Positions 20,341 through 47,949 of a stretch of 64,000 nucleotides of DNA are shown here, one piece after another. Under the pieces are notes generated by a model. The model saw only the letters and a program-made list of their open reading frames with translations. It did not search any database and had not been told where the DNA came from. Origin of the DNA: Amphiscolops sp. MND2022 (Eukaryota); assembly GCA_964187785.1 (NCBI GenBank), contig OZ076409.1:43650001-43714000 (forward strand). Direction: 5' to 3'. Position 1 is the stretch's first letter. Each line of letters starts with the position of its first letter. Both the position numbers and the translations under genes were made by a program.

Positions 20341-21295
20341 TGTAGGCGCCAGTCAATTGCGAGATCAGAAACTCAAATTTGACCGTGACTGATGAAACTT
20401 ACAACTCAAAACACTTAGAAACTTTGTCAAGATTTTAATTGGAAAATTTACAAGTTTCACCAGAAATATGGCGTCACCAAAAAGGGCCAGCCCCCCCCGT
20501 CCCGATAAACCACTCATTCAATCACCTTCAAACTTGGCACACGTATAGTAGTGGTGCTATCCTAACTTTTCACTAGGAACAACCAACCCCGTATCTCCCC
20601 TGGGTTCCGAGCTATTAACACCCAAAGTGACCTAGGTCGGACCCCATGAATTACCCAATTTTTATGTATTAATTATTATGTGATTTTCCTATATGACCTT
20701 GAAGGAAATTCATCTCTGTTGAAATTACTGATATTTACATTGTGTAAACATACTTTCTAACCCACCTGACCAACATGCCAAAACCAGCACATAGTTTGTT
20801 TACTTAGCCAAAAACTTCATTTTATGCTTTAAATGTCATTTTATTTATACCACATATTTCAACTGATATTTGCTTATATTTACTGTAGAACTGTAAACCA
20901 TATGTATACCATTGTTAGATAGAGATTTTCTCCACTGAATAGCTATAGTCAAGTTGGGTCTTAGGACCAAGAGACTAATTAATCAACTTCTCAATCTTCA
21001 CAACTTTTCGCTAGAGTCAGAGCGACTAAGTAGCTACTCTCATAGTTGGAGAGCCGGAGCGCGTGAAGATACTGTGAGGGAAGTGTGTTACGGATCACAT
21101 CGGATCCAAATCAGTGCAAAAAGGAATCGCAGGAGATTCCACGGGTCACATCGGACCCACCAGTCTAAAGATACAGTCCTTTAAAACAAGAAAACCAGGA
21201 TTTGTTTAGTGACGGTCCACAGCACTAAGCAACGGATCAGGGCGGCGTAAAGCTTGTCAAGCCTCAGCGCAGGATAAAGGCAAGCAGCCGTTACA
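20341..21295 (+). repeat. 5' LTR of BEL/Pao element (955 bp)
   Basis: Begins TGTAGGCGCC, ends GCCGTTACA; about a dozen differences from the 3' LTR by eye (~99%). Confidence 0.97.
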
Positions 21296-21297
21296 TT

Positions 21298-21314
21298 TGG
21301 TCCGCCGACCCGGA
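21298..21314 (+). promoter_or_regulatory. Primer-binding site, tRNA-Tyr-like
   Basis: TGGTCCGCCGACCCGGA starts 2 nt after the LTR. Its complement TCCGGGTCGGCGGA-CCA has the G72/A73 end of eukaryotic tRNA-Tyr and resembles the common BEL PBS TGGTCCTTCGAGCCGGA. Confidence 0.7.
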
Positions 21315-21413
21315 CAACTCTTTGGTGGACGACCCGGACTAGAAGAAGACGACTCGTTGGTGGACGACTGAGAAGATTGCCCAAGAAGAACAAGTGTCTG
21401 GATCTTGGAGTCT

Positions 21414-21637
21414 CTACTGTGTCTCTGGGAGATTGGGCTACTGTGTCTCTGGGAGATTGGGCTATTGTGTCTCTGGGAGATTGGGCTATTGTGTCTCTGG
21501 GAGATTGGGCTATTGTGTCTCTGGGAGCTTGGGCTATTGTGTCTCTGGGAGATTGGGCTATTGTGTCTCTGGGAGATTGGGCTATTGTGTCTCTTGGATA
21601 TTGGGCTATTGTGTCTCTGGGAGATTGGGCTATTGTG
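21414..21637 (+). repeat. 24-bp tandem array (9 full units + partial) in the BEL/Pao leader
   Basis: Consensus CTATTGTGTCTCTGGGAGATTGGG, head-to-tail without spacers, few substitutions. Confidence 0.97.
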
Positions 21638-21671
21638 ACTTTGGAACTAAACTCAATCGACAAGAGAAGAG

Positions 21672-24600
21672 ATGGCAGAACCAAAACGGTTCGATATCAA
21701 CAAAATCGAAAACTTTCTGAAGAACTCTGCTGACAAAGCCCAAACGTTGAGTTATTGGAATGCAGCTGTCGAACACGGTAAGACTGTTAAAGAAATTGAT
21801 GAGAACCTAACTAGCAATGTTGACGACAAGCAGATAGCAGATTTACTACTAAGACGAACAGATTCCATGAACAGGAGGGATCGGCTCATTAAGGCAGTCG
21901 AAAATGCGATCAAAGTCAAGTATCAACCGCAGATACCCGAAATCTTCTCAACAGTGAACAAAGAAATGCAGAGCCGATTGGCTGAGTTGCAGCAGCAAAT
22001 CTCTAGCGTTGGAAAGGTACAAATGCTGATGTCAGCATTGCAAGACGAAAATCAGATACTAAATTACTTGGATCTTGACGAAAAGAAACGTGCTATTGAT
22101 AGACTAATGGATAGCAACAAAAAGTTGCGGGAAGATTCAATCGCAAATGGCAAAGTTGTCGACGAAGAAGATTATGCTGCAGCATGTCAAGAATTGCTGC
22201 AGAAACGGTCTGACATTAAAACGAAGATTGAAGATCTGCTGAAGACAGGAGAAGGAGGAGCCATTTTGCGAAGTCTTGAAGACGCTGAACAAAGACTGGC
22301 AGACGCTCGGGTAAACTCAGCAGCAGACAAATCCAGTAAAAATGGTACCTCACCACAAAAGGAACCACAATCAGACAATGAGCAAAAAAGACATGATGAT
22401 GGCCATAACGCAGATGACAGACAAGAGCCAAGAAATGGAGCTAGTTCATTGCCAATAGACGAATTGAGCATCATTCGCGAAGTAAAAGAACCAAAAGCAA
22501 CAAAACGTCTGTGATTTCAAAAACATCTAGTGCACGACGATTTCTCGATTTGGAGCTGAAATCTTTGAAAGAGCAAGAAGAACTTCAAACCCGCCTAGAG
22601 AAACTGAGACGTGAAGCAAACGAAGTTAAGATAGCTAGCTTGCAAGATGAGATGGTTAGCTTGCAAGAGGAGATGGCCCGCAAAGCCAAAATTGCTGAAA
22701 AGGAACTACAAATGGCGCAAGTGTCGAGTAGTGATGGGTCTAGCTTCCGAAGTATCTCACCAGTCGGGACTCCAGATGACAATCTGACGAAAGTCTCAGG
22801 ATGGATGGACAAGACAGAAGAAGCTGAAAACGTGGCATCGCAGATTAACGTGCCATCTGTATACCAGCAAACGTCCGTCTCAGCACCAGTGATTAAAGTA
22901 CAATCAACGCATGGAGGACAATGCTCCGCGCAAGTCAGGGACTTGAAACCCTCAGTGAAACCGACCATATCCATAGAAGCCGCTGTGCGAGGTCTTGGAA
23001 TGGACAGAACAAAGACTGTCATAGGAGTTGGCAGCCAAAGAGCAACAACGCAACCAGAAGTGAAATTCGCCACATCGAAGCCGTCAATGACCCTTATGGC
23101 AAACCAAAGCTGGGTACCACCTACGAATGGGGGCAACCCGAGTAGTGCATTTCAAGTACCACAGCTTGAGAACACACAGAAGCAGTATATGCCAAGTCAA
23201 GGGCCAAACATAGTGTCAAATGCGAGAGATGACTACTAGATCAGATCTAGCTTGCCAAAACTGAAGCTGGCAGAGTTTTCCGGTGACCCATTGGAGTGGC
23301 CAGAGTGGTCACAACTCTTTCAAGCAACCGTCCACGCAGCCAATATGGATGACAGTGTAAAGATGAATCACCTGAAAACCATGGTCACAGGCAAAGCCAA
23401 GGAGGCGATTGCTGGCCTTGGGTACACTGCCAAGATGTACAATGTGGCGTGGAACGTTCTAGTTCGAAACTTTGGAAAACCCCAAATGGTTGTGAAAGCC
23501 CAGTTGAAGCGAATCTATTCCTTCCCCCTATGAAACCTTATGATGGAGCTGCATTGATTAAGTTTGCGAGAATAGTGTCGAGTTGTGTGAACGTTCTGAC
23601 ACAATTCAACTACGTGGGAGACCTAAACTCAGAAGGAGTTTTAGGCAGTGCCACAAGGAAGTTAACACTGGACATGAAAACGAAGTGGCTCACTTATGTG
23701 AAGCAAATGAACCTGTATCAACCTGGACTCGCTGTGTTCAGTGAATGGCTCAATGATTTAGCAGATGTTCAAGACGAATTGCTTTTGTCTTCAAACCCGA
23801 ATGCTGACCGCGCGAAGTCGAACTACAAGGAAAAGGCCAAAGGCTCCACGTTTGCCACATCAACAACAAACACAGCCAGTGACAACTCAAAATACCAGCG
23901 AGGGTGTGGGCTGAAAGATGGCAAACATCCCATATGGAAATGTGAGAAGTTCAAGAAGATGAACGTCGAAGAAAGAGGACAAAAGGCGAAAGAGTTGAAA
24001 TTGTGCTTCAAATGTTTGTCAGACGCGCATCAGATGAGAAATTGGTCTGGTAGACTCTGCGACGTAAGTGGTTGCGGAAAACCTCATCACAGATTGCTAC
24101 ACAGACCATACAAGAACGTGGAACAAAAGAAAATTGTTGAAAATGTTGAGGAGGTTTCAAATCTGTCCTCTATGAGAAGCAGTGGAGTGCTTCCCGTCAT
24201 TCCAGTATCGATAGGGAGTGGGAGCAAAAATGTGAAAACGTTCGCTTTGTGCGACTCTGGAGCAAGCCTGTCCTTTGTGGACGAGAGCCTTATGAAAACG
24301 CTAAATCTGACGGGACAGCCAGTGGATTTGAATGTTGCAGGGATTCATGGAACGTCAGATATTAGTAGCAAACGACTTCGAGTCAGGATTGGAGATCAGG
24401 ACGGAAAAGTCAAAGAAGATATCATGGCATATAGTCATCCCAACGTGAATGCAGGAAATCGAACTTACAACCTCAAGAAATTAAAAGAGACATATCCTCA
24501 CCTGTCAGTATTGAGGGAGTCTACCATCAACTTGGGAGAAGTGAAAGTCATCTTGGGCCAAGATTGCTACCACTTGCATAGAGCAATCGACTATAGAAAG

Positions 24601-27600
24601 TGTGGAAACGCAAAGCCCTGGGCAGTGCGAACGAAGCTGGGATGGATGCTCAGTGGACCCTTGCCTCAGCAAGAGACTGCGAAGCTTGCTACTGAAAGCT
24701 TAGTCGCTGCAGAAGTGGACCCATTAGCGGATCAAGTGAAAACTTGGTGGAGCATGGAATCGTATGCTTCCAACTGCAGCGCATCCGGAATGTCCAAAGA
24801 GGATGACAAAGCCCTCGAAATGCTCAAGGCAACCACAAAGTTCGATGGAGAGAGGTATGAGGTCGGGCTACTTTGGAAAAATGCAAAGCCGTATTTGCCG
24901 AACAACTACAGTTCAGCAGTAAGTCAATTGAAGTCTCTCGAGCGCCGACTGGAAAAGGATGAGAGCTTGAAACAACGCTACAAAGAGACAATTGACGTGG
25001 ACGTACAAAAGGGGTTTGTGAGAGTTCTGGACGAAGCAGAGCTTGAAAACACTAATTCAGACCTTCAGTGGTATGTTCCGCATCTCCCTGTGCTGAACCC
25101 GAACAAGCCGGACAAGGTGAGACGAGTGTGCAACGCTGCCTCAAAGTTCGGAGGTGTTTCGCTGAATGATAACTTGATGGCCGGTCCAGACCTCCTACAA
25201 TCGCTGATAGGAATTATCTTCAGATTCAGGGAAAAGGAAGTCGCCCTGACAGCAGACGTCGAAGCAATGTTTCTCCAAGTGAAAGTACCCCCTACTGATT
25301 GCAGAGTACTGAGATTTTTGTGGAGAGAAAACCACACTGACCCTATCTCTGTGTATGAATATGGAAGACACATTTTTGGAGCTAAGAGTTCGCCAACATG
25401 TGTCAACTATGCTTTGCAACAAGTCGGACGAGACAGCAGAGATGACAATGGGATGGTTGCAAAGTTGATCAACAGAAACTTCTATATGGACGATTTTGTG
25501 AAGTCAGTAGCTTCAGGGGAAGAAGCTGGCTGTGGAAGTGTACAAGTGCTTGCGAAAATCCTTAGCGGATCGTGGCTTTCAACTAACGAAATGGATCTGC
25601 AACTCAAAGAAAGTAATGGAAGAAATTCCTTCTGAAGATAGATCAGACGCGCTAAGTAAAACATTCGAAGCTGAACCCTTGGCACCCTCTATCTTGGGAC
25701 TCCAGTGGAATGTGGAGTCAGACAGTCTTGAGATTTGCCGCGGTACGGCAAAAGAGGTGCCTGTCAAGATCACTCAGAGAATTGTTCTATCTCACGTATC
25801 CTCTGTGTTTGACCCGTTGGGATTGTTTTCCCCCTTCACAGTGAGAATGAGATTGTTGCTCAAAGGAATTTGGAAGAAGCATGGGCAATCGTGGGACGAA
25901 CAAGTTTCTCCAGAAGACGAGATTGCTTTCAAGGATTGGGCATCGGAGTTGAGTCACATGAATGAAATGGCTATCAAAAGAAAATATCTATCGAAAAATG
26001 CTGAAGTAGTGGACTTGCATATTTTCGCCGATGCATCCCTGGAAGCCATGTGCATGGTTGCGCCTACTTTCGAGATCAGCAAACTAGAGAGCTTGCCTAT
26101 GTGGTTGGGAAATGCCGAGTAGCGCCAATGAAGCAACAATCAATTCCCCGACTAGAGCTACAAGCAGCTATGTATGGAACCCGATTAAAACAACTGATCG
26201 TAGACGAACACGACATTCAAATTGAACGAACTTTCTTTTGGACGGACTCGACAACTGTTTTGCAATGGTTGCATGGAGCTGATAAGAAACAACCGGTGTT
26301 TGTGGCGAACAGAGTCGCAGAGATACTTGACAGTTCAACCATTGATCAGTGGCGACATGTCGAAGGAACCTTAAACCCTGCCGACATCGGAACAAGAGGA
26401 AAATCCGTCCATGAATTAGAAAAGAGCGAGTGGTTCACAGGGCCGGCATGGCTTCAAGAAAAGGAAGATGCTTGGCCACAAACCTCACCACAGTTGTTTC
26501 AGCAGAAAACAGAAGACATAGAGCAAGTCTTTGAAGTCGTGTCAGAAGAAAAGGACATTGATTGGGAGAAGTTCGGTTCTTTCAGAAGAACGACCCGCAT
26601 CTTCGCCTATTGCCTTCGGTTCAAATCAAAAAGCAAAGGAAAGGTGGTAATAACAGAAGAAATGCAGCAAGTGATCCGACTGTTACTGCGGAAGAGCCAG
26701 ATGGAAAGTTTTGGTCCAACATATCAAGCATTGGCCGCAGGTAAACCAATGGCTGCATCTGATCACTTAATTTATGGACGAGCAGAACCTCATGCGATTA
26801 GGAGGACGACTGCGTCATGCTGAGGCCAGTTATGAAATGAAACATCCAATTTTGCTATCTGCGAAGCATCCAATAGTGAGGAAATTGATTGAAGATGCGC
26901 ATGAAAATAACTACCACGAAGGAACAGAGTATGTTCGCAGTATTTTGCAGCAGAATTATTGGATAATTGGACTCCGAAACGCGCTTAGAAATGTGAAGCT
27001 GAAGTGTGTTAAGTGAAGAAAGCAACTAGTCGGAGGAGTTCAACCTTTCATGGCAGACCTACCTAAAGAAAGATTGGAAGAAACAGTTTTCCCATTTGCC
27101 AACACTGGAGTAGATTATTTTGGACCATTCGAAGTGAGATTCATGAGTAAATCAATGAAACGATGGTGTTGTCTATTCACATGTTTGACAACAAGAGCTG
27201 TGCATGTTGAAATTGTGCCCAGCCTGGAAGCCGACGCATGTCTTGCTGCAATTACGAGTTTCATCGCAAGAAGAGGAAAACCGAATATCATTCTAAGTGA
27301 TAATGGAACAAATTTTGTGGGTGCAGCGAGAGAAATGCGAGAATGGATAGAAGCTTGGAATCAATCAGACATTGAGCATTCTTTGGCTCAGAAGCAAATA
27401 AAATGGAAGTTCAACCCCCCAGGAGCTCCGCATTTTGGAGGTGTTTGGGAGCGAATGGTCAGAAGCTGCAAGAAAGCTATGATGGCAATTGTAGGAAACA
27501 GAACACTGACAGATGATGTATTATCCACAACAATGTGTCTAGTCGAGCAGATATTGAATTCGAGACCTCTGACTAGTGCCAGTGATGATCCTGAAGATTT

Positions 27601-28069
27601 GGAAGCTTTGACTCCAAATCACTTCCTGCTAGGACGTGCAAGTCCAGCAACCCCATTTATTCCTGACGCTCAGCGATATACCGATCTGAGAAAAGTATTT
27701 AGAGTATCACAAGCATATACAGACATGATTTGGAGCAGATGGAATAGAGAATATTTACCACAATGGAATGAGAGATCTAAATGGAATAAAGAAGAAGTTA
27801 GACAACTGGAAGTCAATGATTTGGTTTGGATAGTGGATGAGAATGTAAAAAGAGCACACTACAAGATGGGTAGAGTGTTGGAAGTCTACCATGGAAGCGA
27901 TGGGCGAGTGAGATCAGCGTTGGTGAAAACAGAAGATGGAAAACTCAAAAGACCAGTAGTGAAACTGGCACCCATGTTCTACGAAAGTGTTTTTCGGGAG
28001 AAAAACAGGGCCGGCAATGTAGGCGCCAGTCAATTGCGAGATCAGAAACTCAAATGTGACCGTGACTGA
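21672..28069 (+). pseudogene. BEL/Pao gag-pol polyprotein with several frameshifts and stops
   Basis: PKLKLAEFSGDPLEW (Pao gag), CFKCL..CDVSGCGKPHHRLLH, protease ALCDSGAS, RT NFYMDDF, RNase H LHIFADAS, integrase GVDYFGP / SDNGTNF / GGVWERMV. Lesions near 22500, 23237 (TAG), 23525, 25525, 26060, 26770 and 27014 (TGA). The ORF ends inside the 3' LTR. Confidence 0.95.
27996..28017 (+). promoter_or_regulatory. Polypurine tract
   Basis: GGGAGAAAAACAGGGCCGGCAA immediately before the 3' LTR TG. Confidence 0.7.
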
Positions 28070-28970
28070 TGAAACTTACAACTCAAAACACTTAGAAACC
28101 TTGTCAAGGTTTTAAATGGAAAATTTACAAGTTTCACCAGAAATATGGCGTCACCAAAAAGGGCCACCCCCCCGTCTCGATAAACCACTCATTCAATCAC
28201 CTTCAAACTTGGCACACGTATAGTAGTGGTGCTATCCTAACTTTTCACTGGGAACAACCAACCCCGTATCTCCCCTGGGTTCCGAGCTATTAACACCCAA
28301 AGTGACCTAGGTCGGACCCCATGAATTACCCAATTTTTATGTATTAATTATTATGTGATTTTCCTATATGACCTTGAAGGAAATTCATCTCTGTTGAAAT
28401 TACTGATATTTACATTGTGTAAACATACTTTCTAACCCACCTGACCAACATGCCAAAACCACCACATAGTTTGTTTACTTAGCCAATAACTTCATTTTAT
28501 GCTTTAAATGTCATTTTATTTATACCACATATTTCAACTGATATTTGCTTATATTTACTGTAGAACTGTAAACCATATGTATATCATTGTTAGATAGAGA
28601 TTTTCTCCACTGAATAGCTATAGTCAAGTTGGGTCTTAGGACCAAGAGACTAATTAATCAACTTCTCAATCTTCACAACTTTTCGCTAGAGTCAGAGCGA
28701 CTAAGTAGCTACTCTCATAGTTGGAGAGCCGGAGCGCGTGAAGATACTGTGAGGGAAGTGTGTTACGGATCACATCGGATCCAAATCAGTGCAAAGAGGA
28801 ATCGCAGGAGATTCCACGGGTCACATCGGACCCACCAGTCTAAAGATACAGTCCTTTAAAACAAGAAAACCAGGATTTGTTTAGTGACGGTCCACAGCAC
28901 TAAGCAACGGATCAGGGCGGCGTAAAGCTTGTCAAGCCTCAGCGCAGGATAAAGGCAAGCAGCCGTTACA
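28018..28970 (+). repeat. 3' LTR of BEL/Pao element (953 bp)
   Basis: Near-identical copy of 20341-21295, followed by TSD ATACC. Confidence 0.97.
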
Positions 28971-31900
28971 ATACCAATACAATCGCATGATTTTGCGCGC
29001 GCATGTTCATGCCATATCTACACAGAAACAGCTTACCAATGAAACAGCTCAAGATCTTCGTCAACTCATAGGAACCGTAGGAGAACACTGAGTGGCCCGG
29101 GAGAACATGGACCAACAAGTCGATCAGTAAGATCAAATAGTATTTCTAGTACACCTCGTCCCAAAAACACTCCCTGCCGACACGAGGAAATTTTGGAACC
29201 CTCAATGACTGGAACGGATTCTCGGAGCTGAAACGATTTGAAAAAAATCCTGGAAGATGGATGCTTGGCTCTAGAAGCATCGACAATCTCAAGGCCAACA
29301 ACTGCACTCTCGCAACGGAACTACAATACCAACCCACGACAAACGTAGTCAATTGCGATTGTTACAATTGCACTCACGAAATACATCTTTGCTCAAAGTT
29401 CAAGCAACTTTCTGTTCCGAATCGCGCTGAGTTTGTCAAACTCAACAAAAACGTTGCTTCAATTCATTGAAAGCAGGTCACCGACAAAAATGCAGATGAA
29501 CAACTTGTAGAACATGCAATATGAAGCATCACACTCTACTTCATCTTCAATTACCACGACAATCACATTTTTTACAGCACAATCGCAGTAACTATTCGAA
29601 ACAATGAATCAGAAAACACAACTACTGCAGCATCATCACCACCAGAGAAGTTCACCGCTACCTCGCTCTCTCATCAAACAACCGGAACAGTATTCCTGTA
29701 CACTGCTATGATACCAGTTTTGGTAAATTTGGTAAATAGTGAAACGACCCTTTGCCGAGCACTCCTCGACTCAGGTTCCCAAAGTATTTTCATCACTGAG
29801 AATCTAGTCACACGACTAAGTCTTCCAGTGAAAAAAAACAACATTTGCGAATCTTTGGTCTGGGGGCCAAGGGCGAGCTGCAACATCGCGAAACCACAGA
29901 CGTCCTTATCACCCTCAAAAAAGCAGCAGTTATTCCAGTGAGAGCCTTCGTAATGTCAAAGCACACCAACGACTTGGTTTCATACAAGTTTCTGACATCA
30001 TCTATCTTTCGTTGGTAATGACATGCTCATCGGAGCGGAACTTTTTGAAACCATCATGTTGGTTGTCATTAGAGGTTCGACTTCAGTGTCATTTCAAACC
30101 CTCACAGCCTGTCTCAGCTCACTGAGTTGGATTCCCGAAGAAGAAACGGCATCACCTCCTCAAAGCCATCACCTCGCCAAAGAAGAACAAGCCTGCGGAC
30201 AACACTTCCAACAAACCACAACACGAAACGACGATGGATTATTCATTGTCAAACTAACTTTCAAAGAAGACGCCACACCCCTTGGTGACTCTTTTCAGCA
30301 AGCAAAACGTCGCCTCGAAAGAGAAAGAATTCTCTACTAACTTTCCGATGACGAGAGGCTCCGTACTAGATACGCAGCCTTCATCAAAGAATTTTCGGAT
30401 CTGGGACCCATGGAGAAAATCCCGGATTCCGAAATCCCGATTGCATCCAGAAAGTCATTCTACCTGCCACACCACTGTTTTTCAAGGATTCCAGAACAGC
30501 AATCAAGCTTCGTGTGGTTTTTGACGCCTCGGCGAAAATAACATCCGTAGTTCCACTAAATGACAACCTCATGGTTGGTCCGAAAATCCAAAATCATCAC
30601 CTCGAGATCTTGATCAGGTTCAGGTTTCACAAAGTGGCTTTGTCAGCCGACCTTGCCAAATTGTATAGTCAGGTACCTCTCGACAAAGGAGACCGACATC
30701 AGGCATATCGAGTCCGAAGAATACTTCATCAAAACACTTCGTGTCGTCTGGAAACCGAAACAGGACATCTTCACCATCAACGTGAAACCGACCGAAAAAA
30801 TCCCATAAACGAAACGTCAAATTCTCTCCGATATCACCTGCATCTTTGACCCGTTGGGTCTCCTCTCACCGATTGTCATCAAAATACAATCGTTCATTCC
30901 AGCACTTTGGTTAGATAATTTGTCTTGGATTCAACCATTGACTCACAACTTCTCGCAATATCATAACCATATCAGAGGCATTCTCAAGTCAAACGACGAG
31001 ATATCGACACCCTGAAAATCATTTTCGATAAGAATGAGCCTTCCAAGAACCCACTTGAACTCCACTGCTTTTGTGACGCCTCTACAACCCCTTACGCCGC
31101 AGCTATCTACATCCGTCAACCCATCAGCTAAGGAAATTTTCGAAGTCGTAGCCAGCTACTCGTAGCTAAAACACTAGTCGCACCAATTAAAACAGTTTAT
31201 GTTCCCCGATAAGAGCTCTAAGCAGCTCTATTGGAAGCGCACTTGTTCAATCAATCAAAATTGCCTTGTGTGACGAACAAGTTCCCGACCTCGAAGTTTT
31301 TGCATTGATCGATTCTACAATCACATTGGCTTGAATTAAAAACTATCCGAATAGTTGAAAAACCTTTGTTGTCAATCGCGCGGCGAAGATTCATAAATCA
31401 GTCCTGGCAGAAAACTGGAAACATGTCCCCACTGAATTCAATCCAGCCGAATGGGTCAGCAGAGGAATGTTGCCTATAAAACTTCAAAGTCACAACCTGT
31501 GGTGGCAAGGACCTAAGTGGTTGGCATGCCAGCTTCGGTGAGGTCTCAAATCGATGTTGCTCTGTCAGAAGACAGTCTAAAAGAAGCCAAAAGGTTGAAC
31601 ATATTTCTGTTCAGCTGGGCCACCGAACAGTTGTGAGGAGTAACTCTCACGAAAACAAAACCCAGAAACATCAAAGCCTTGTTCACCTGTCAGCCCGTGA
31701 ACCACCGATTGTGAACCACAACCAAGAAAAAACAGCAGCAATAGCAAAACCAGCAGAAGAAGAACAAGCAGACGATCAAGAGGGAAAGAAAGAACAACAA
31801 CAACATCTGCAGAACTCACTCAACACAATCACACCAATCGAATCGAACCCCGGAGATTACAAAGAACCCACTATTATTGACAATGCAAGACTCGTTGCAG

Positions 31901-32362
31901 CCAACAACCATTCGAGGTTCAAGAAGCTCGTCAAAGGTTTCATTTTTGTCCTCAAGTTTGTTTCAATTGTGAAACAAAAGAAGAAACCGACAGAAGGAAA
32001 AAGAATAACACACCCAACACACAAAGTAGAAAGGACAGTTACACCTTCCGGCAACGACATTGAAGAAGCAAGACTACTGATTTTGCGAACCTTTCAAAAA
32101 CAGCAGTTAACAGAATTTGAAGTCCTCAAACAAAGCAAAAACTTGCTCGGTAAGAGCACGCTTAGGGCCCTTGCTCCGTTTTCTGACGAAGAGTAACAAA
32201 TCTTTCAAAATGGTGGATGTCTCGCCAACAGCAACAGACACCACATGGTTTTCAATTTTCCAATCAATGTACCCCGGCGGTCGATTATCAACGCACTCCT
32301 ACCTCAAGACAAACTTTATCACGGAAATTTCTAGGAAACTCCAGTCAGTCTCGAGCCCAAAC

Positions 32363-35300
32363 TGTTGACAAAAGTAAGTCGAGACCGGAAGAGCTGCTCT
32401 TTCTAACATTTTATTACGGTATCCGTGACCTAGTAGCGTTGTAAGGTAGCATTGAGCAACACTGAAAAACGTTCAATGTCTCTTGCTGAGAACCAAACAG
32501 TGGGCATTGCTTTCAATTAACGTTGCATTGAAAGAAGTTGAGAAATTCCCTCTTGTTCGGAGACATTTTAAGTAGAAGCCCGCGTAGGCCTTTTGGGAGA
32601 CTCGTTGAAAGCTGTGAGCCCAGTGGCGATCGTGAAACCTACGTAGCCCTCCGAGTTGGTATTCTTGGTACCCGTAGTAGAATAACATTGATAGAGAAAC
32701 TTGGCGGTAGAGAAACGTGTATCCCACAAAAATATAATAACCAACTAACACCTGTCAACAATCATAGATCTTCATAAATATCATTCAGTTATTTGCTGTT
32801 GCATTGAATGTTACGATTTAATTTCCAATTCATTCTTCATTCATTTCTGGTTTCGATCAAAATTACATTTTAATATGGCGTTGCGATCAGAAACTTCATC
32901 GTCTAAAGGACAGTTACTTCGTTACTGCTGGAATTACTTTTATTTTGGCCAAAAGACACCAAGTCACTATCGATGGAATGGGAAAAGACGTTAGAACATT
33001 TTGCTGTGGTTGTTAATGCCAGAATTACAGAGCTTTTTACCTCTTTCCAAAAGGAGTCCGGTTGCAGAGCAATTAGTTCAGAGTTTCCTAATTTGTTCAG
33101 CTAACAGTTACAAAATTCAAATTGAGTTGAAGGACGGTGCGCGACTAACTCAACAGGTCATGGAATTCCAAACCAACTACAAAAGCAGGTATATGGAGGA
33201 AACGAAAGTGTGGTTGAACAGGGAAATTTTCAAAAACTAAACACTAAATAAGACGACGTAGCCATACAACCAGTGTTAATAACAGTGGAGAAAGAGCGTT
33301 CGGTCAGAATTGCCTTGGGTGTGCGGGCGTGAAAAATCTTGAGCAAAGGACAAGTTTTTTGAGGAACTTACGTAATGTGTAGGTGGAGACTTATTGACAG
33401 GTTCCAAAAATGAAAGTACCGCAAAGCATTGTGAAATTCAAATCATAGGCGAAAAACCAACAGGAACCTATCGTTTCATAGAAGACCATTACAGTTTAAC
33501 AAAAATGCCCGCAGAATTCAGTTACTTAGTTATAGACATAACGCTTAAAAACGTGAATTTGAATTGTACGTTTGCTTATGAACGACAACTTGATTGTTAC
33601 AGAAGGTGAAAAACAAACGTATACATGCAAAGAGTCCGTGAAGCACTAGAAGTATTAGGAAAAACCAGCTTGCATTTGGGTGCCGATAAATTTAAAGTAG
33701 CCTGTAAAACGATTGAGTGTCTGCGATAAAAAGTGTCACGTAAAGGCATTCCACTAGTAAATGGCGACGTTTAAGGAAGCAAAGAAAGATTGAACCCGGA
33801 AAATCTGGAGAATTGAGATAATCCTTAGTAGTAATCAAACAATTGAAAAATTCGTCCCAGAGATAGCTAACATTTGGTCACCATTTAGACTAATTCTGAA
33901 AAAAGCAGAGTGAAATTGTACCCACGAACATGAGGAATCTTTTTGAACACCTAACAAAGAAAGTAAAACAAAAACTGAGCAGGCCCATTCCAAACAAAAC
34001 TGGAAATTGAGAAGTATTGGGGAGTGCCAGTGAACGAGGATTGGGGGCGGTGCTTCATCAACAGCAAAACAATCGAGAATGGAAACCAGGGGCATTTGTG
34101 TTGAGTTTTTCAACAGACGTCAAAACTAAATAAAAGATGAACGAGCAGGAACTTTTGGCGGTAGGCTGGTCGATCTCGCATTTGAAACACCAGGTAGAAC
34201 GGGTGAATTTTTAGGTATTTTTTATCATAAGGCAGAAGCATCAGTATTGAAACAGAATGGAGTGAAAAAAACCTTCTGAAGCACAGTACCAAGATTAGTA
34301 GATCCCCTACTACCGTTCTAGTTTGAGTTAACTATCTATCGAGTCATCCAAGGGAACTGAAAAGAAGTTCCAAAGAAACGGAAAAACTATGGAGCGATTT
34401 CTTCACTGGAAATACTGCAACGGAAATCAATGCTACTTCTGAGATTGAGACAACTCCATTTGAAATGTCAACACCAATGAAACTGTTGAGCGCGCATGAT
34501 TCTGTAGTTATCACGAGTGGAAAGCGAACATGACCGTCGGCAGGCACCGAATGCAAAAGAACAAAACGGTAGTGAATAAATCCAATCGCTAGAGATAGCG
34601 TAAACGAACGCAATGAGGAAGTCAGTGCTGCCAATAAACTTTATAACGTGAGTCAACGCGAATGAGAAAACAACAAGAGCATGCAAACTACTGCATCCGA
34701 AATTATCGACAAATTAACGATTCAAAGTTGCCTGAATGATATGAATCTGATAAAATGCTTCAGAAAAGAATAATAATAGTAAAAACCAGGAACGGGGCTA
34801 AGAACTCAAGGTTGCCAGCTCTGTGGCAATAGAAAATTAACACGCTTAGTGTCGACAATCAAAATGTCTAATATAAGGACCAGCGTTTAGTCATACCTTT
34901 TATCTTCGCAAATCAAATCTGTGTTTAATTCATTGTGGTCATCCAGACAAAGACACAATGTTACGCTACATAGCAGCCATCTGGAGGCCAACATTTCACC
35001 GGGAAGTGATAATCACATCAAAATGCTAAGAACAGCGCAGCCCAGAATATAGAAACGTTAAACAGTTCAACAACAACTTCAGTTCGGGGAAATTCCAAAA
35101 TCGCTGAAAGCGAACAAAGAAACAGCGTTTGCCGATTCGTTTCAATATGTGTAACACGGAAAAAGGTATTTGATTGTAGTTGGATAACTTCTGGGTTTGG
35201 CCCGACGCCCGATTCCTACATAAACCGACAACGAAAAAAGGTTGATTTTTTGAAAAACCAAATACCTGGATATTGCATACCGAAACATTTTAAATATGAC

Positions 35301-36429
35301 ACGGGTTCAGTTTTTGCCGGCAAAAATCCTAACTTTTTTGCCGCCAATATCATGTTGAACACATAACGTGTCCAGTAGGCGATCACAGAGAACCAGCAAA
35401 TTGAGCTATTGATCTGAACCATCAATGAACGCCTGAGAATAAATGAAAGCTTCGTCTTGAAATGAGATAAATCAGTTTGCCGGAACACCTCTATGCATAG
35501 AGCATAGGCGAAACATTTTACGAAAAGTCGCTCTTTGAAAAACTCTACGGACGGAAACCCAATACAGTAAAGACGAAACGTCGCAGATCGATTTGAAACT
35601 TTTCAGAAACGGACCCTAAGTTTGTCTTACGCGTCTCAGATTTCGAAGAAGAAGAAGATTCCACCATTTACCATTATTGTGAGAGAAAGACAAAAAGGTC
35701 TAAGGTAGAGGGGAAATACAAAGGACGAGCGGAGAAGGTGGTGGAATAAAGTGCGCACAAAATTACATTTCTTACCAAAAAGAACAAGAAGGAAATCCAG
35801 TATACAAAAAGAGATGTGGCCAAGGACAATACACAGATGAAAGCTGACAGCTCAAAGCAGTCTCTAGTCGAAAAAAAAACATCAGCGGACGAGCCATTTG
35901 TACGAGATTTATGTTGGAGAAAAAAGAAACAACAATGACTGATTAGACAATTGAGGAATCAGAGATAATAAAAGACAGCAGTATCAAGTGAACAAACTGG
36001 CAGAAGAAAAAGACCAGATCAAATCAACCATGGAACCGAAACTCTCAAAAACTGCAAATCCGAAAAAAAATGCAAAAAGAGAGGGAACTACCAGAAATGG
36101 TCCTGCCGGAAAGAGAAGAAGCAATAACCACTAAGAAAAAAGCAACGAAATCATCAATTGAGTGGGTACGCTCCGCCAGTTTTGTCTGAAAACGGTGTGT
36201 GTAGTAGAATTACTAGAAAGATCTTGATAGAGAAACTTTGGTGCTAGACAAAATATGTATTTCATATTATCAAATAATATTTTTATTAGTAGTACTTACC
36301 AACACCTGTCAACAACGCTAGATCTACATATATATCATTCAGTCATTCGCTGTTGCCTTGTATTTAACAATACAGATCTCAATCCATTCTTCATTTGTTT
36401 CTGCTTTTGATCAAAGTTACAATTCAACA
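32363..36429 (+). mobile_element. Highly decayed Gypsy-type LTR retrotransposon lacking gag
   Basis: TGTTGA..TCAACA termini. Diverged LTR 3' ends at ~32747-32875 and ~36300-36429 (both aacacctgtcaaca..tagatct..tatcattcag..cattcttcatt..gatcaaa). PBS-like TGGCG at 32876. RT-like IQPVLITVEKERSVRIAL (~33264) and TAKHCEIQIIGEKPTGTYRF (~33418); integrase Zn-like HCGHPDKDTML..IW (~34931). No TSD found. Confidence 0.7.
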
Positions 36430-37284
36430 GTACCCCAGTGTTTACCTGATAGTGATCTGGGACCCACTTAATTCTTAGGACAGGAGTGACTCGCTCAGTT
36501 GAGTCGGGTAAAGTATTTTTCTTCAAACAGTCGTAAAAGCATTTGCAAAAGCGGGTACAAGGCCCTGTGGGTTGATTGCATTTTCCGAAGGTCTCTTAGG
36601 GTAACCTTCGTGGGCTGGTTTATCCCAAATTAATCAAGTATGCAACTAATTTCCTCTTTTTGTCTCTGCCTATTCTCCCAATTTACAGTATTTCTGGTGA
36701 TGATTGTAAAATACGCTTCCTGGAGCGCTGTTCATGGTTTCAGTGCTTCATACCAGGGCATAATAATCTAAGTGCACCAAATGTTTTTCGATCATGATTA
36801 AAGGAATAGGAGTTTCCTCCCAAAATTTGTTGGCAACAAGAAAGATCGGGAACATTTGGAAGCAGTTTCAACAAGTGTTTTTGCTGAAACGCGTGTAATA
36901 TACTTTTGCCTTAGTCTCGATCATTTGTGATCTTTCAGAAATTTCTCAACTTGAGGTTCGTTGAGTGTTTTTGGCTAATTATAACTGATTATATCTTGAG
37001 TATCTCCTTCTCAATACAGTCACGGTATCACGCAATTTGGCACGAGGAGTTAACTTAGAGCTGTTTATTGGTCTCAATGAACACACACCGACACCGAGGC
37101 GTTCAAATCATTAAATCTAAAAGGTTTTTAGTCAAATTAGGTGCAATTTTGGAGGTTGCACTCAATCAAAGCATGGTTGCTGAAATATACACAATTTTGT
37201 TCAGCAGTTTCAATCAAACCGCTATTTCATGAAGAAGAAACAAGAATTTCTGAAATCGATGCGTATATAAGCTATTTCCCCACC

Positions 37285-39173
37285 TGTGGAAATGTTAGTT
37301 TTTGGCGTCTACGAAAACCCATTGCGTTTGCGCAAAGTACAAACGATCGACAGAAATATATTAATCATGTTTTTAGACCATCGAAATGGTAAAAGCAGCT
37401 GAAATGGCTGACCAAAGCGTACTTTATTAAAGCTCATTTGGCAAACTTGATGTTTACTTGGCAAACGAAACTTCTTAGCTGAAACTATAAGCTAAAGAGT
37501 GACGTCGACAATGAAATTGTTCGAATCGGCTAAATCAGAGTTGAAACTCTGAGAGCGAATTTTACTAAGTCTCACTTTCGAGCGAAAATATTCTAAGATA
37601 CGCTAGGAAAAACCAATCATCAATTTTCTGCAAACCCCCCCCCAAACGGTTTTTCTCAAAGACTATTTATCGTAGAGACTTGAAATTTGGCACACGTATA
37701 CCTGAGCTGTTATGCTACCGATCTATAAAAACGGAACCGAGCCGAGACCCCCCAGCCCCGGACTATTAACACCGGAAGTGACCTAGGTCGACCCCCCCAT
37801 GAACTCGTCGGCTAAGCACGGAATAAGTCATATTATATATGGAATAGATAACCCACATGATCTTAAGCCGTCTGTGTATATTTTCGGAAACCCACAACGC
37901 GTGTAGGAGGAGCAGGGACCCTGAGTAAATAAACCCGGAATATCGTGTAAATAGCCACCAGATGACCGGAAGATCATGAAACTTGCCTAAGATGTTCACC
38001 TAATGACCCTAAGAAAAATACATGAAAGATACATTAATCGGTCCACCACGCGCGGAGTAATGTTTATTTAAGGCACGGGGGACCGGACGCACGGGCCCGA
38101 CCGATGAATGACATTTGACCTTGGCTTGTAATATATCAAACGAACCGGAATGATGAAGGTAGTCGATTTATAACGTGAATGAGACCGTATTTGTAACCCA
38201 TGCCGGGGTAGCCGCCTTAAGTAAACAAATGATACGCATATCATGTAACTCGGGAACTGTTGACCCTAGAATGATATAACTTGGCATGTAGCAACCTTAG
38301 ATGACAACAAATAACTTCAACGTCACCGATGGACCTCAAGGTCATTTTAGATGTAACCCCGGAACGTATGGAAGAACTTGCGATAAAACATGTAAATCAG
38401 CGTCTTTAGGTGATAATTTATGCATTTCAGTCAGGCGAGAGAATTCGCGATGCACCGAGCTCAGAATAAGAGAAGATTACCCCTTACGCGTAGAGAACAT
38501 GTAAACCATGAAATTGAAGGTCATTGAACAATTGTCTCGATATTAGAAATATCTCGGGTGACTTGAATTATTATATATATGTGAACTTTGTGCAACCATT
38601 GTTGAATTATTTGTCGGTGGCGGCAAAGAATGTTTAGCTGAAGTATAAACAGTGGCGTTTGCGATGCCATAAACGGAATATGTAAATATGAAGGTATAAA
38701 TAATGCTAAATTAAGACACCGACGCCCTACATTAGAAATGTCAAAAACGAAATACACAACCGAGTTAGAGAGCTAGAATTCAGATGCGCCTCAGGACGGG
38801 GGCAAGAGATTCGAACTAGCTGGAGTAACTTGTCGTCGTTAACTCCGGGAGTCGGTGACAGAAATTGTACATGTCCGCGACTGGACGATTGTTTGATTCA
38901 GTTGGCTGGATCGTGATATACTTATATATTCGCTGAGTAATCAATTGGAAGATCGTTTTCATCGTGTTTTGTGATTTTATATCAATTTCTAAACTCGATC
39001 ATTCCAACCTACAGTCTCATTGCAAATATAGAGCCGATAGAGCAATTTGGAGAGAAACTAGTGTCAAACTAGTCCTATGAGCAGAAGCAAGAACTCACCA
39101 AATAAAAACCTTTTCTGATAGAGTTAGATCCTTGGGAAATCTCTCCAGCCCTCGCTATCTAAAAACTTCTACA
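37285..39173 (+). repeat. 5' LTR (~1.89 kb)
   Basis: Starts TG after the TSD and ends CTACA just before the PBS; the distal 1.32 kb matches 43685-45000 (~97% by eye). Confidence 0.9.
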
Positions 39174-39292: not shown

Positions 39293-40233
39293 ATGGATCA
39301 GGACGAACGAAGACAGCTACTGGAAGTTGCGGTACTTGCATTCGGCCGAGTAATGAATGGAAATCACAATTGAATTTGCAACAGAGGAACAAATCGACCT
39401 GAGTGCTTTCCGTCCGATTCATTTACTGGTTGGGTGCCATGGAAGTCCCACCTTGCTGCCACGGACGAAGCGAATCGGTGGACCCATGCTGAAGCTATCA
39501 GTGCGCTGCCAGTGTGTTTTAATGGACCAGCCTTGGACGAGTTTAAAGTAGCACCCCAGGAATTGATGACTCAAGTACCGAACTACCCGGCACCTACTTT
39601 ACCAGCATTATTTGAGCACATGGATCAGGCGGTGGGAGTCTTTCGCAATAACAGAGCTAGACAGATCGAATTTGGGTCTCTTGTTCGGAAGGATAACGAG
39701 ACTCTTCTGGAGTTTGCACGCAGAGTCAGAAGCATGGGTTCACTAGTTTTGCCCATCGAGATGTAGATGAACGAGACGAACTTCTGCGTGAGCGATTTTT
39801 GGAGGGACTGAGCAATCTTGAAAATTCAGAGACCTTGTTGCGAGAAGAAACCAGAAGCTTTAGTGAAACGGTTGGTAGGGCAGTTGACCTAGAGAGCATC
39901 TTACGTTCCGCCAGAAGCCACCGGGACGCGAGAACAGCTACAGTGCGCGTGGTGCAAGAAGCTGCGACGTCATCGTTGTCACGAAACCTGAACGACTTGA
40001 AGAAGCAATTGAACGGGCTGATGGTGACAATAAAAGATCTCACAAACGTGATGACACAATTCGTCCTGACTTATGGGGACGATTTTCGAGATGGCCAACT
40101 GCGACCGAAGAACTTAAACTCGCAGGGGCCGGGACACCATCAGATGAAACGTTCATCCCGGCTGTCTCCAGAACAACTGCAAAAGAACCAAGGGAAGCCT
40201 CAAACGTGTCAGAAACGGGCACCGTCAAATTAA
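39293..40233 (+). pseudogene. Gypsy-type gag (capsid), frameshifted
   Basis: ATG at 39293; fragments ANRWTHAEAISALPVCFNGPALDEF, RKDNETLLEFARRVRSM, ELLRERFLEGL, SFSETVGRAVDLE fit retrotransposon capsid helices including the MHR-like segment. Confidence 0.75.
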
Positions 40234-41390
40234 ATTTGGCAGGAATAGAGATGACCGCAGTGTTGGATGCCAGTATGACCGAGAATGTCATAAGCTTCAA
40301 AACTCTGTATGAACTGAAGTCGTTTCCAAAACTCCAGCAATGTGAGAACAACGTGGTCTGGACTGAGAGTGGACCCATTAATATCGTGGCAGAGTCTTGC
40401 CCAAAGGTGTTAGTCGGCCAAGAAGAGGGGTACGTGAACTTTTTGGTATCTCACGATATTGGGCATTCTGCCATCTTGCGATCAACATTCATGGGGGAAC
40501 ACCACTTGATGGGGGCAGCTCACATAAAACCAGAACGGGTTGAGGAAGTTTCAGAGATCATGGAGAACGAAGAACATTTTCAACGACTGGAGAAAGTTGG
40601 ACTGCTGACAACTGCTTTGCTCCGCGGTTCTGTTGGAATATACGGAATCACGACTCCCCATGCAGGAAAGATATCCAGTGATCCGGCAAAATGCATCAAC
40701 GGCCTCGGTACTGCAAGTGGTGAACCTAGGCTAAAAATAAATGAAGGAAATGGGATCATTGGTGGTACGAAAAGTAAATGCACCCACACTAACCCAGAAA
40801 CAAGCGCTTCACCCGCAACCCCCAACTCGATAGCTTCTCGAAGAGAACCCGAAATTCCTATACAATCAAACTGTGAGATACTAGTTGGTTGGGATTCCTC
40901 AGTGCCGGATCAAGCAGACGGCAGACACTGTCACATGAGTGGCGAAGAACTCCCGAGCACTGCTCAAGAAGTGGAGGACGCAATGACTTGGAAGGGCTTC
41001 GAAATGGGAGACGCAGAACCCGGCCAGCTGCCCGAAGAGGGCGACGTGGGTGCACTGGATGCGTATATTGAAGAACCGCTGCCAGAACTTGAGACAGATG
41101 AAGGGTACGAGTTTCCCTCCAAAGAGCTAGATTTTGATGTGCATGAAGTATTGGTTGATGTGAACACGTTTGTCGAGGAGGAACACCCAATGGCTGTGTC
41201 CAATCCAACTACGGTGCAAGACGGAAGATTCGATGATGACTCAGATGATGGAAAGATCGAGGAACTGTTGAAAGAACTGGAAGAGCTCGCCAAACCACGT
41301 GAAAGGTCCGCGGACGATGAAGCGACAATTGATGCGCTACTGCTAGAACTGGAACTCGAGTTGACGTGCTCGAACAAGTCAAGTCGATAA
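40206..41390 (+). CDS. Degenerate retroviral-type aspartic protease fused to a long acidic low-complexity tail
   Basis: VKLNLAGIEMTAVLDASMTENVIS (DTG/DSG replaced by DAS) ... FLVSHDIGHSAILRSTFM (cf. ILGxDFL), followed by ~290 aa of E/D/P-rich sequence. Open for 394 codons. Confidence 0.65.
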   Translation: MSETGTVKLNLAGIEMTAVLDASMTENVISFKTLYELKSFPKLQQCENNVVWTESGPINIVAESCPKVLVGQEEGYVNFLVSHDIGHSAILRSTFMGEHHLMGAAHIKPERVEEVSEIMENEEHFQRLEKVGLLTTALLRGSVGIYGITTPHAGKISSDPAKCINGLGTASGEPRLKINEGNGIIGGTKSKCTHTNPETSASPATPNSIASRREPEIPIQSNCEILVGWDSSVPDQADGRHCHMSGEELPSTAQEVEDAMTWKGFEMGDAEPGQLPEEGDVGALDAYIEEPLPELETDEGYEFPSKELDFDVHEVLVDVNTFVEEEHPMAVSNPTTVQDGRFDDDSDDGKIEELLKELEELAKPRERSADDEATIDALLLELELELTCSNKSSR

Positions 41391-43684
41391 CAGAAGTGAA
41401 AGAAACTGGAACCGTTGTGAACTGCTGGGACGCCTTCGAGGTGTCAGCTCAGAGTACAAGGCAAGTCAAAGAGGCCAGCAGCTCAGAAACTAGGTTTATA
41501 GCGGAAGGGAAGTGCTGTTCCCGAAAATCCCAAACGACTGATAGTCGTGAGCGAGACCCTGCCTTGTCCCCTTTGGAGACACCCAGCAGCAACCAGCCCT
41601 AAAACACAGAAGGCGACTCTGGGAGCCCCTCAGGAAACGTGGAAGACGAAAGACGGCAGAGCAGCAAAAAAGGTTCCCGGTATCCTGCTGGACACCCCAT
41701 CGGAAGCGAAGTAAATGGAAGACCCGATTCAACCCACTGGACATCCGAAGTCTCCAGCAGAAGAAGGGAGCACATCTCCACTCGCGCTGCCAGTGGAAAA
41801 GCGGAAACCGAGCTGACGGCAATGCGTGCCCACCAGACGACGCGGCGATGTACGTGAAACTCCATCCGCCGAACATTTCAGTATATTTTCTGACAAAACC
41901 AATTTCGAACATTCCCTTAATTTTTTTTCTTAAAATTATTGTTGCGAAGTCATCGTAACTTTTGTTGTCAGGCAAATCGAGGTTCCGCCGAAGGCGGTTT
42001 TTTCGCGAGACGATGAAATTGTATCTAGTTTTTTTATGAGTAACTTTTCAGAGGCTGAACTTTGCGGAGCCTAATTCTCTGTTTATATCCATTTTAATGT
42101 ATCAACACCCAACCCTGACCCTAACCCATTTCATTTAATATGTGCCTATGAACAGACCTATACCCCTATCTCGCAAACCCCTACCTTAGTGCTATTCTCT
42201 TTGTTGTTTTGTTAGGCGCGGTAACTAGCCTCAACCAATCCACACTTATCTTCGAACATCTAAATTAGGATCCGTAGGACTACTCCCTTGTGTATTGCCA
42301 AAAAAGAAAGATACAATAAATTGATTTAGTAGGTTAAAGGGAATGAAGCGATGGATGATGAAATTAGGATTGAAAAGATCGTTTTGTTCAAGTGAATTCA
42401 GGATAGGAAATCCGGAGGCGACGTCTTTTTGAAAACTCTTTGAAGCGTTCGTCGGGCCAATCGTAGCCGAATCGTCTGACACTCGACGCTTTCCCCTGGG
42501 ACGGGGAAATTCAGTAGAAACGGGGTAAATTCGACCCAGCCAGGCAACAGATGTTCTAGCAAAAGCTGTTCCCCTCCTTCCAATAATATCCTTATGCCGT
42601 AACCCCCGTCTACACTCAGGTTCTGCGTAGAGAAGATCCTCCGATAGCAAAGGGAAGCCGATCGCAATCGTATTATGATATTCTCATGCATCTTGGTTTC
42701 CACGTATCACGAAATTGAGAAGATGTAAGTGTACAATTTTTTAGTTCCGAAACGTCAAGTTGGCGAAAGCTGATTTTAGGTGAAGGGTAAATTTGCTGAG
42801 TAAACAAAGCTTTCAAGAGCGAAAATTCCTCTCATGTAATAGATGATTCTTTGACGTTGTTCTAAATGTGGATAACTAAGCAAGCAAGTATGGAATCATA
42901 GAAGCCCGTACCCGAATGTTGCGGAAAGTAATAGGATTACAGGAAACAATTGTTTGATCTCTAAACAGCTCTCGAAGCAGTCCTCCATATGAAACACCGC
43001 TAGTACGAAAATTTGAGTATAAGCATCTTTCCTGTTGCGGGTAGAAAGTAAAGTTTGAGTTTGTTGATTACTATTATAGACTAATTTTTCACCATTCTTA
43101 CGGTCATGGCTTATATTGGATTGTATTGGAATTGAGACTGCCGGGGTTTCCACGAAGTGGTGTTGTTAGAGAGGATTTTTTTTACTTCGGGGATGCACCC
43201 ATGATCGCTAGGATCCATTGCTCCGACAGGCTCAGGAGAAGGAACCTAGAAGTCCACCCGGGAACGCGGATGTGGACAAGCCTGCTTGCAACCCTAAGAG
43301 AAATCTTCTCTTTTGCGGGAAACCTCCACCCTGAGCATCGGTTGCAAGTTGGCAAATTAATCATGTTCATGGCTAATTCCAGAAAAGCGCGAGATTAACT
43401 CACTCCCAAAAGTTCTTTTTTTAAATACTCAGGCTCTTTATTCAATCAATAATTTAACTTAAGTTCATTAGTGTACACCCCCCACCCTCTTGCATAGTCG
43501 CTGAAAACTAAATTAGCGAAAATGTTTGTTTTTAGAGTGACATAGGTAAACTAAATGATTTCTTCTATCAATCCATTCTAGTGTTGTTATTTTTGCTCTC
43601 GTTCAATGTATATACTATTCATGGTCGGTGCTATTGACTTCATTTTGGAATGTTCTGACCAATGCCCAACCCATTAATTGAAAG

Positions 43685-47887: not shown

Positions 47888-47949
47888 CCAATCACTGCAA
47901 AGGTTACGTAATTCGATTCAACACGTTCAAAACTATGAATACACAAACG

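Follow-up and report, generated by a model that had tools for sequence, protein, structure and literature searches.

LTRs of different retrotransposon superfamilies are, to our knowledge, not expected to have more in common than their end, TATA and poly(A) motifs. Some conserved motifs do span superfamilies, but those described in the accessible part of PMC3601003 consist of terminal inverted repeats, the TATA and AATAAA motifs and a GT-rich stretch and not of an internal block of 160 bp, and BEL/Pao LTRs lie outside the LTR models given there. Within a single family, LTR blocks with factor sites are known to be swapped: as far as the available text of PMC8912925 goes, HERVH LTR7 is a mosaic of cis-regulatory blocks with likely factor sites, which recombination spread between lineages and which have unrelated flanks. 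There the exchange took place among subfamilies of one family, and a site was active in a reporter. The “clan” model of recombination in reverse transcription (PMC6894440, main text) offers a way in which U3 sequence could pass from one element to another, although its cases come from within the Ty1 and ONSEN families and the word “superfamily” is absent; homology and co-packaging are named as barriers to the process, so that an exchange between BEL and Gypsy elements would be unusual. Maize Sireviruses, by the title of PMC4728375 one plant Copia lineage, likewise have LTRs whose regulatory part contains conserved palindromic motifs. Outside the LTR retrotransposons, the accessible part of PMC7492417 reports that the central repeats of oyster Helentrons consist of monomers of 140–180 bp with two conserved segments common to otherwise dissimilar monomers.

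Here we analyzed a window of 64 kb (the whole stretch of DNA examined, to which all positions refer, with all features on the + strand) in which a block of this kind is common to the LTRs of a BEL/Pao and a Gypsy-type element. In contrast to LTR7 it joins two superfamilies and is known from sequence alone, and in contrast to the Sirevirus motifs its palindrome is lost in a third copy. No report of a block common to BEL/Pao and Gypsy LTRs was found in the literature, mostly open-access and judged mostly by titles and abstract openings.

Results and Discussion

The first element carries a 5' LTR of 955 bp (20341..21295, TGT...ACA), a coding region in several frames (21651..28069) and a 3' LTR (28018..28970) that is 98.7% identical to the 5' LTR. 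With its paired TG...CA LTRs, a 5-bp target duplication (ATACC on both sides) and the Pfam domain order protease, RT, RNase H (Peptidase_A17), integrase and DUF5641, it is a young BEL/Pao element. The second element begins with a 5' LTR of 1889 bp (37285..39173) that is followed by TGG of a primer-binding site; its start matches its inverted 3' end at 10 of 12 bases and CCACC flanks it on both sides as target duplication. Its interior holds a disrupted gag of Ty3/Gypsy type and a stretch that resembles a protease (39374..41390), and its 3' LTR remnant (43676..45000) is 96.6% identical to 37843–39173. By its sequence this is a deleted Gypsy-type element, classed by gag alone because no RT or integrase was found among its ORFs of at least 120 aa. 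Pfam gave no match for the element's own frames, and the assignment goes through gag relatives, 25 of which were scanned out of 76: six matched PNMA, four Retrotrans_gag, ten zf-CCHC and one an aspartyl protease, mostly under the curated cut-off, which fits a Gypsy-type gag (PNMA/Retrotrans_gag capsid, single CCHC) followed by an aspartyl protease. A tblastn search with the BEL proteins against the interior of the element gave no match, and a word search found no longer relatives of the gag piece. Both classes agree with those proposed in an earlier, sequence-only reading of this DNA, BEL by Pfam and the Gypsy-type gag by its relatives.

That reading had described two boxes, A and B, in the LTRs of both elements, and the cassette is real. 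The first copy (20491..20650, BEL 5' LTR) consists of a C-run, box A (20527..20547), a spacer, box B (20612..20639) with the palindrome GACCTAGGTC, and the tail CCCCATGAA. It is repeated in the BEL 3' LTR (28168..28325, box A 28202–28222, box B 28287–28314), which is no independent copy. The second copy (37635..37803) lies in the Gypsy-type 5' LTR, with box A at 37680..37700 (19/21 identical to copy 1) and box B at 37763..37790 (26/28); as the 3' LTR of this element begins at 43676, without the first 558 bp, only one of its LTRs has the block. The starts of boxes A and B are 85 bp apart in BEL and 83 bp in Gypsy, a C-run precedes box A and CCCCATGAA follows in both, so that the described layout was confirmed in these points. 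Two details go beyond the earlier description: the block is in only one LTR of the Gypsy-type element, and the C-run lies 28 bp before box A in BEL versus 36 bp in Gypsy.

The best local alignment between the whole BEL and Gypsy LTRs scored 128, whereas 150 shuffles averaged 49 and never exceeded 76.5. Spacers and the remainder of the LTRs had been said not to align. This holds for the remainder, as alignment tests found the 100 bp upstream (p = 0.45) and downstream (p = 0.26) unrelated and the best LTR-to-LTR scores with the cassette masked (44.5 and 54) fell inside the null range; a likeness near the 3' ends of both LTRs was rejected since its score was within the null. It does not hold for the spacers, which align with identity in 34 of 66 columns (p = 0.0015, 2000 dinucleotide shuffles). 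Because the spacer aligns, the whole block is of common descent, which points to transfer or a common source and not to two free boxes. We therefore regard it, on these alignments, as one homologous non-coding block of about 160–170 bp that includes boxes A and B. Within the block, conservation is uneven. The boxes are identical at 45 of 49 positions; in 20,000 permutations each, uniform divergence reached this in no case for the whole block and in 11 cases for the stretch from box A to box B alone.

For further copies we turned to relatives of the BEL element. At least 161 were confirmed in metagenome contigs and the best 80 kept, while viral contigs and bacterial genomes yielded none; 36 of the 80 loci had fewer than 400 bases after the integrase and were excluded, including L003, L004 and L015, the three next closest relatives. 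The block was found in one of the 44 informative loci (from the best 80 of at least 161), the other 43 scoring 23–29, including L005, whose score of 29 was judged background. The positive locus, L002, is the closest BEL relative among the matches listed (66% identity in the integrase) and carries a diverged block copy in its LTR (L002:1558-1725). Its boxes, 94 bp apart, reach 33 of 49 positions, the best box pair among 81 loci (matches listed), and within its own LTR both the box pair (p = 0.0003) and a local alignment independent of the boxes (p = 0.001) stand out. Outside its LTR context this copy is weak: over all loci nhmmer gave it E = 0.81, below L060 (E = 0.065), a chance match in coding DNA. 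Its spacer is not significantly similar to that of BEL (p = 0.10) or Gypsy (p = 0.72), and local alignment starting from the Gypsy copy did not recover it (p = 0.18). The exact two-box pattern (24 bases) had no match in viral or metagenome contigs, and a looser one hit one viral contig and 15 bacterial loci, which are chance matches (box A 13–17/21, box B 9–15/28, spacing 71–90) as the similarity does not continue through the boxes in any of them. The cis-module with uneven conservation that the sequence-only reading had proposed is supported by the boxes at 45/49 versus the spacer at 34/66 (0/20,000) and by a diverged third copy in a related BEL LTR.

The three copies also bear on two other explanations of the boxes. 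An old shared stretch could have drifted neutrally and received two short, later gene-conversion tracts that resemble boxes, and two stretches of exact identity, 14 and 15 bases long, within a spacer that is 52% identical could be such tracts; but the same two places are best kept in L002 (a copy first found by the box scan), and conversion between sequences so different would itself be improbable, making this patchwork very unlikely. The boxes also track the host record and not the superfamily (45/49 between BEL and Gypsy versus 32/49 between BEL and L002), as might be the case if binding sites for one pair of host factors had arisen independently in both LTRs. Against such convergence stand the alignable spacer (p = 0.0015), the same order and the common C-run and tail, and single factor sites are shorter than boxes of 21 or 28 bases, leaving it with hardly any probability.

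In all three elements the block sits toward the 5' end of its LTR and in one orientation (n = 3 independent copies), box A starting 186 bp (BEL), 395 bp (Gypsy) and 273 bp (L002) from the LTR start. By this position, between the LTR start and the presumed promoter region, it is placed in U3; downstream of it the Gypsy LTR has TATA-like words and AATAAA (39101), and the BEL LTR has no canonical TATA-like word or AATAAA. No block was found outside LTRs in the 64-kb window, no additional box pair appeared among the top matches of a window-wide scan, and a third LTR family in the window (32.6–36.4 kb) is without it. The spacings of 83, 85 and 94 bp correspond to about 8, 8 and 9 helical turns; a strict spacing constraint, as had been suggested, is not supported by these values, of which 94 rests on a weak match. 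A nucleosome-positioning unit was not supported either, with p = 0.32, 0.53 and 0.73 for a 10–10.5 bp A/T dinucleotide periodicity (1000 shuffles, with low power at this length). The palindrome, compared to nuclear-receptor half sites in the sequence-only reading, is present in the BEL and Gypsy copies and lost in L002.

The block is no coding remnant, as all 18 frames contain a stop and no open frame exists. It might instead work as RNA, since in the 3' LTR it follows the integrase stop by 100–260 bases and in this 3' untranslated part of the genomic RNA its boxes could be recognized by a factor for export, packaging or stability. The BEL copy does form a hairpin around box B (z = −2.2), but the Gypsy copy does not form it and folds with z = +1.2 versus shuffles, no fold is shared between the two (covariation term 0), and the block has no Rfam or tRNA match. 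A function as RNA is therefore improbable in our view, with an unstructured protein-binding RNA motif being compatible with the fold results.

A further possibility is that the block comes from a Helentron-type (HINE/DINE-like) repeat spread over the genome, one unit of which entered each LTR in a separate event, so that the boxes would be parts such repeats always keep and any use by the LTR optional. By the accessible parts of PMC7492417 and PMC4067079, the block shows several likenesses to Cg_HINE of the Pacific oyster and DINE-1: a unit length of 140–180 bp versus 160–169 bp for the block, C-runs, GTGACCT words, a TGAAAYTT core with similar upstream bases, and two conserved segments in dissimilar monomers. 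When the 28 bases before the TGAAAYTT core were compared by eye and in register to an oyster monomer (cluster CL1, supplement 2 of PMC7492417), 17 matched in Gypsy and 14 in BEL (uncorrected binomial p = 0.0002 and 0.008), but only 9 in L002 (p = 0.33); over the 25 bases that follow the core, 8 matched (p = 0.36). The Gypsy LTR contains two further, weaker units that resemble box A (37963..38306, cores at 37979 and 38277); they are suggestive only, ranking 4 and 9 of 130 by their flanks alone, and a 297-bp period was not found. The exact box cores AAATTTGGCAC, AAACTTGGCAC and GTGCCAAATTT had no match in the 3.35 million characters of the PMC7492417 supplement, and box B is without a counterpart at the matching place in the oyster and DINE-1 repeats as far as these sources show them. 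Unlike those repeats, the block is single-copy inside LTRs and forms no tandem array of 140–180 bp units; subterminal inverted repeats (11–15 bp) bound it in neither window LTR, L002 having only a 71% A/T-rich inverted pair, and neither a TT or T-rich insertion site nor a target duplication was found at its approximate edges. Such repeats have a palindrome near their 3' end; GACCTAGGTC lies about 12 bases from the block end in the two window copies and is missing from L002. All three copies sit in U3 in one orientation, with none outside LTRs in 64 kb. Of the Helentron/DINE-like link suggested for box A, a low-level resemblance around this box thus stands and nothing beyond it, and separate uptake of such a repeat is possible but rather unlikely.

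We consider it about an even chance (probability roughly 0.5) that the block represents a non-coding cis-module of U3 that would act as DNA, was moved between BEL and Gypsy lineages and has been kept by selection on two predicted protein-binding sites. The block would have crossed once between these lineages in the ancestry of this host, either through template switching in reverse transcription or through ectopic DNA recombination. A BEL donor is simpler to assume, though the comparison has no root, because a related BEL element from another record already has the block. As U3 is copied into both LTRs in every cycle, the recipient would then have spread it. Boxes A and B, separated by about 8 helical turns, may be bound by host proteins that may raise or protect transcription from the downstream LTR promoter; such binding would lead to selection on each element that preserved the boxes while the spacer drifted. 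The first origin of the block may possibly be a Helentron-type repeat unit. A wider proposal, which we find unlikely on present sequence, is that a portable two-site U3 module from such a unit circulates among the LTR superfamilies of this animal lineage, its boxes binding a host factor or complex at whole helical turns (8 or 9) and changing in step with the host, giving unrelated elements the same control switch.

Conclusion

In summary, a block of about 160 bp with two well-kept boxes is common to a BEL/Pao and a Gypsy-type LTR. Were it an ordinary dispersed repeat, it would be a nested insertion of little interest. If the proposed transfer is true, the block would be evidence that regulatory DNA is able to pass from one superfamily to another, and it would offer a short starting point for work on the conserved but unexplained segments in Helentron-type repeats. 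The agreement of the boxes with the host would then point to a host factor licensing or shielding several retrotransposon lineages at once.

Results and Discussion

Two LTR retrotransposons and their surroundings

The window is animal DNA, as indicated by two frames of the ENaC/degenerin family and a tektin exon. An LTR retrotransposon cluster occupies 20.3–45.0 kb. Its first element is a BEL/Pao retrotransposon with LTRs at 20341–21295 and 28018–28970 (98.7% identical), the target duplication ATACC and Pfam matches to protease, reverse transcriptase, Peptidase_A17, integrase and DUF5641. Its integrase clusters with 27 members at 95% identity and 119 at 92%, so the family is large. At the start of its interior (21366–21692) a 24-bp unit is repeated in tandem in about ten or more copies.

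The second element shows a direct repeat (37843–39173 and 43676–45000, 96.6% identical), and the cassette described below lies outside it. CCACC occurs only once within 36430–37843, at 37280, with TG directly behind it, and the same five bases come immediately after 45000; the start of the element matches its inverted far end in 10 of 12 bases. The 5' LTR is therefore 37285–39173, with the cassette inside, and the 3' LTR is without its first 558 bp, together with which pol appears to have been lost. Where pol would be expected (41400–43675), the sequence is unrelated and includes CCCTAAC-like short repeats around 42105–42190. Classed by gag alone, the element is assigned to the Gypsy type: 76 relatives of the gag piece were found, and the 25 of them scanned gave mostly weak matches to PNMA (6), Retrotrans_gag (4), CCHC knuckle (10) and aspartyl protease (1).

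Directly 3' of the BEL element lies an old broken BEL/Pao relic (29000–32200, plus strand, tblastn matches about 30505–31523) in which no LTR was recognised. A direct repeat (32744–32873 and 36298–36427, 79% identical) flanks 3.4 kb of decayed sequence and probably marks an old LTR retrotransposon whose terminal repeats are short. Long unbroken frames of the amiloride-sensitive sodium channel family are present on the minus strand at 12796–14238 and 52934–54274 (480 and 446 aa; 13898–13969 and 54102–54173 are 76% alike), and a tektin-family frame (45846–46484, plus strand) adjoins the Gypsy-type element on its 3' side. Other features are a 141-bp tandem duplication (47608–47889, 91% identical), a MITE-like element (52301–52723) with 45-bp inverted ends made of 14-bp repeats, a foldback-like element (61764–63241) with arms of about 630–680 bp (85% complementary), and the palindrome TTCCATGCATGGAA with variants, clustered at 54385–54577, 59652–59723 and 60300–60324.

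One shared and unevenly conserved segment

The sequence-only reading had proposed a two-box cassette common to the LTRs of both elements, and this is a real feature, partly as first described. Box A (20527–20547 in BEL, 37680–37700 in Gypsy, 19/21 identical), box B (20612–20639 and 37763–37790, 26/28), the spacings of 85 and 83 bp, the C-runs and the tail were all recovered. The two whole LTRs reached a local alignment score of 128, whereas none of 150 shuffles exceeded 76.5. As had been stated, the rest of the LTRs does not align: with the cassette masked the score drops into the null, and the 100-bp flanks give p=0.45 and 0.26. The claim that the spacers do not align either was wrong (34 of 66 columns match, p=0.0015), and since the spacer aligns and the flanks do not, the two LTRs have a single segment in common, which measures 160 bp in BEL and 169 bp in Gypsy. 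The suggested comparison of boxes with spacer showed that conservation is uneven: permuting the match pattern 20,000 times never produced two windows as well matched over the whole block, and did so 11 times in 20,000 when restricted to box A–box B. What has been shown for the block is its homology, its position and orientation, and its uneven conservation. Beside the aligned spacer, convergence of the boxes is very hard to credit; that they are conversion patches, set in a less similar segment, is quite improbable.

No further box pair was present among the top window-wide matches, and the block is absent from the older LTR pair at 32.6–36.4 kb. The best box-A-like site outside the LTRs (59249–59300, plus strand, rank 1 of 130 on flanks) has no box B after it. 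A faint likeness towards the 3' parts of both LTRs (20813–21024 and 38949–39131) scores within the null.

A search of metagenome contigs for integrases of the BEL type gave at least 161 confirmed loci, of which the best 80 were kept. Of the 81 loci then examined, L002, a BEL locus and the closest relative among the matches listed (66% identity), had the best box pair. The pair lies 273 bp into the LTR on the same strand and follows a C-run. Within this LTR none of 3000 shuffles reached the box-pair score and none of 1000 reached the score of a local alignment with the BEL block, and L002 scored 33 against 23–29 for the others among 44 loci with at least 400 bases past the integrase (from the best 80 of at least 161). 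In a two-copy profile over all loci it had E=0.81 and ranked beneath a chance match, the Gypsy copy did not recover its block by local alignment (p=0.18), and its spacer similarity to the two window copies was not significant (p=0.10 and p=0.72). Judged from these comparisons, it is probably a diverged homologue.

All three copies are identical at 13 of 21 positions in box A and 18 of 28 in box B. The boxes of the window BEL and Gypsy elements (45/49) are closer than those of the window BEL element and L002 (32/49), so they follow the host record. The palindrome noted in box B occurs in the window copies but is not kept in L002, and the spacing, proposed to be conserved, is 83 and 85 bp in the former but 94 bp in the latter. 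These three values, 7.9, 8.1 and 8.95 turns, are only a hint of helical phasing.

Every copy has a stop in every frame, leaving no open frame in the block, and no Rfam or tRNA match to it was obtained. An RNA element in the 3' untranslated region is improbable: the BEL copy folds a hairpin around box B (z=-2.2), the Gypsy copy is without it (z=+1.2), and the covariation term is 0. The idea of nucleosome positioning was not borne out, as no 10-bp A/T periodicity was found in the block. Searches of viral, metagenome and bacterial collections with exact and loose two-box patterns yielded no genuine copy. Three bacterial loci (L090, L094 and L096) have one common stretch near 1500–1604 meeting the loose pattern with 85-bp spacing; this is probably one conserved gene resembling the block by chance.

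Relation to Helentrons and to known LTR modules

An origin from a Helentron/DINE-like core had also been considered. In oyster, non-autonomous Helentrons contain central repeats of 140–180 bp, and some otherwise dissimilar monomers have two conserved segments in common (PMC7492417). Rows of cluster CL1 from its supplement were compared by eye, anchored on the TGAAAYTT core. The 28 bases 5' of the core match at 17 (Gypsy), 14 (BEL) and 9 (L002) positions (binomial p 0.0002, 0.008 and 0.33) and the 25 bases 3' of it at 8 in Gypsy (p 0.36); these values are uncorrected, the stretch having been picked after the Gypsy match was noticed and rows from five of 13 clusters having been looked through. 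The exact box cores do not occur in the supplement file of PMC7492417. The Gypsy LTR holds two weaker box-A-like units. When a matrix was trained on these together with L002, the genuine box A was its best held-out match, but on flanks alone the two units ranked 4 and 9 of 130. Helentron-defining features, as given in PMC4067079, were not found at the block edges. By sequence the block looks partly like a Helentron-type repeat unit and may belong to such repeats; separate uptake of a genome-wide unit of this type by the two LTRs is a somewhat unlikely explanation.

We favour, at a probability of about one half, a U3 DNA module that would have passed between the BEL and Gypsy lineages, with boxes A and B as putative protein-binding sites maintained by selection. 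The transfer, its direction, protein binding and effect are what we infer. The motifs known to recur in the LTRs of all groups are a GT-rich stretch, AATAAA, TATA and the ends (PMC3601003). Regulatory LTR blocks are described as having been exchanged among HERVH subfamilies (PMC8912925) and within the Ty1 and ONSEN families, for which homology and co-packaging are given as barriers (PMC6894440). No case of BEL–Gypsy block sharing was found in the literature covered, mostly papers free of subscription. The block belongs with the mosaic LTR cis-modules already known, and its occurrence across superfamilies is the notable part.
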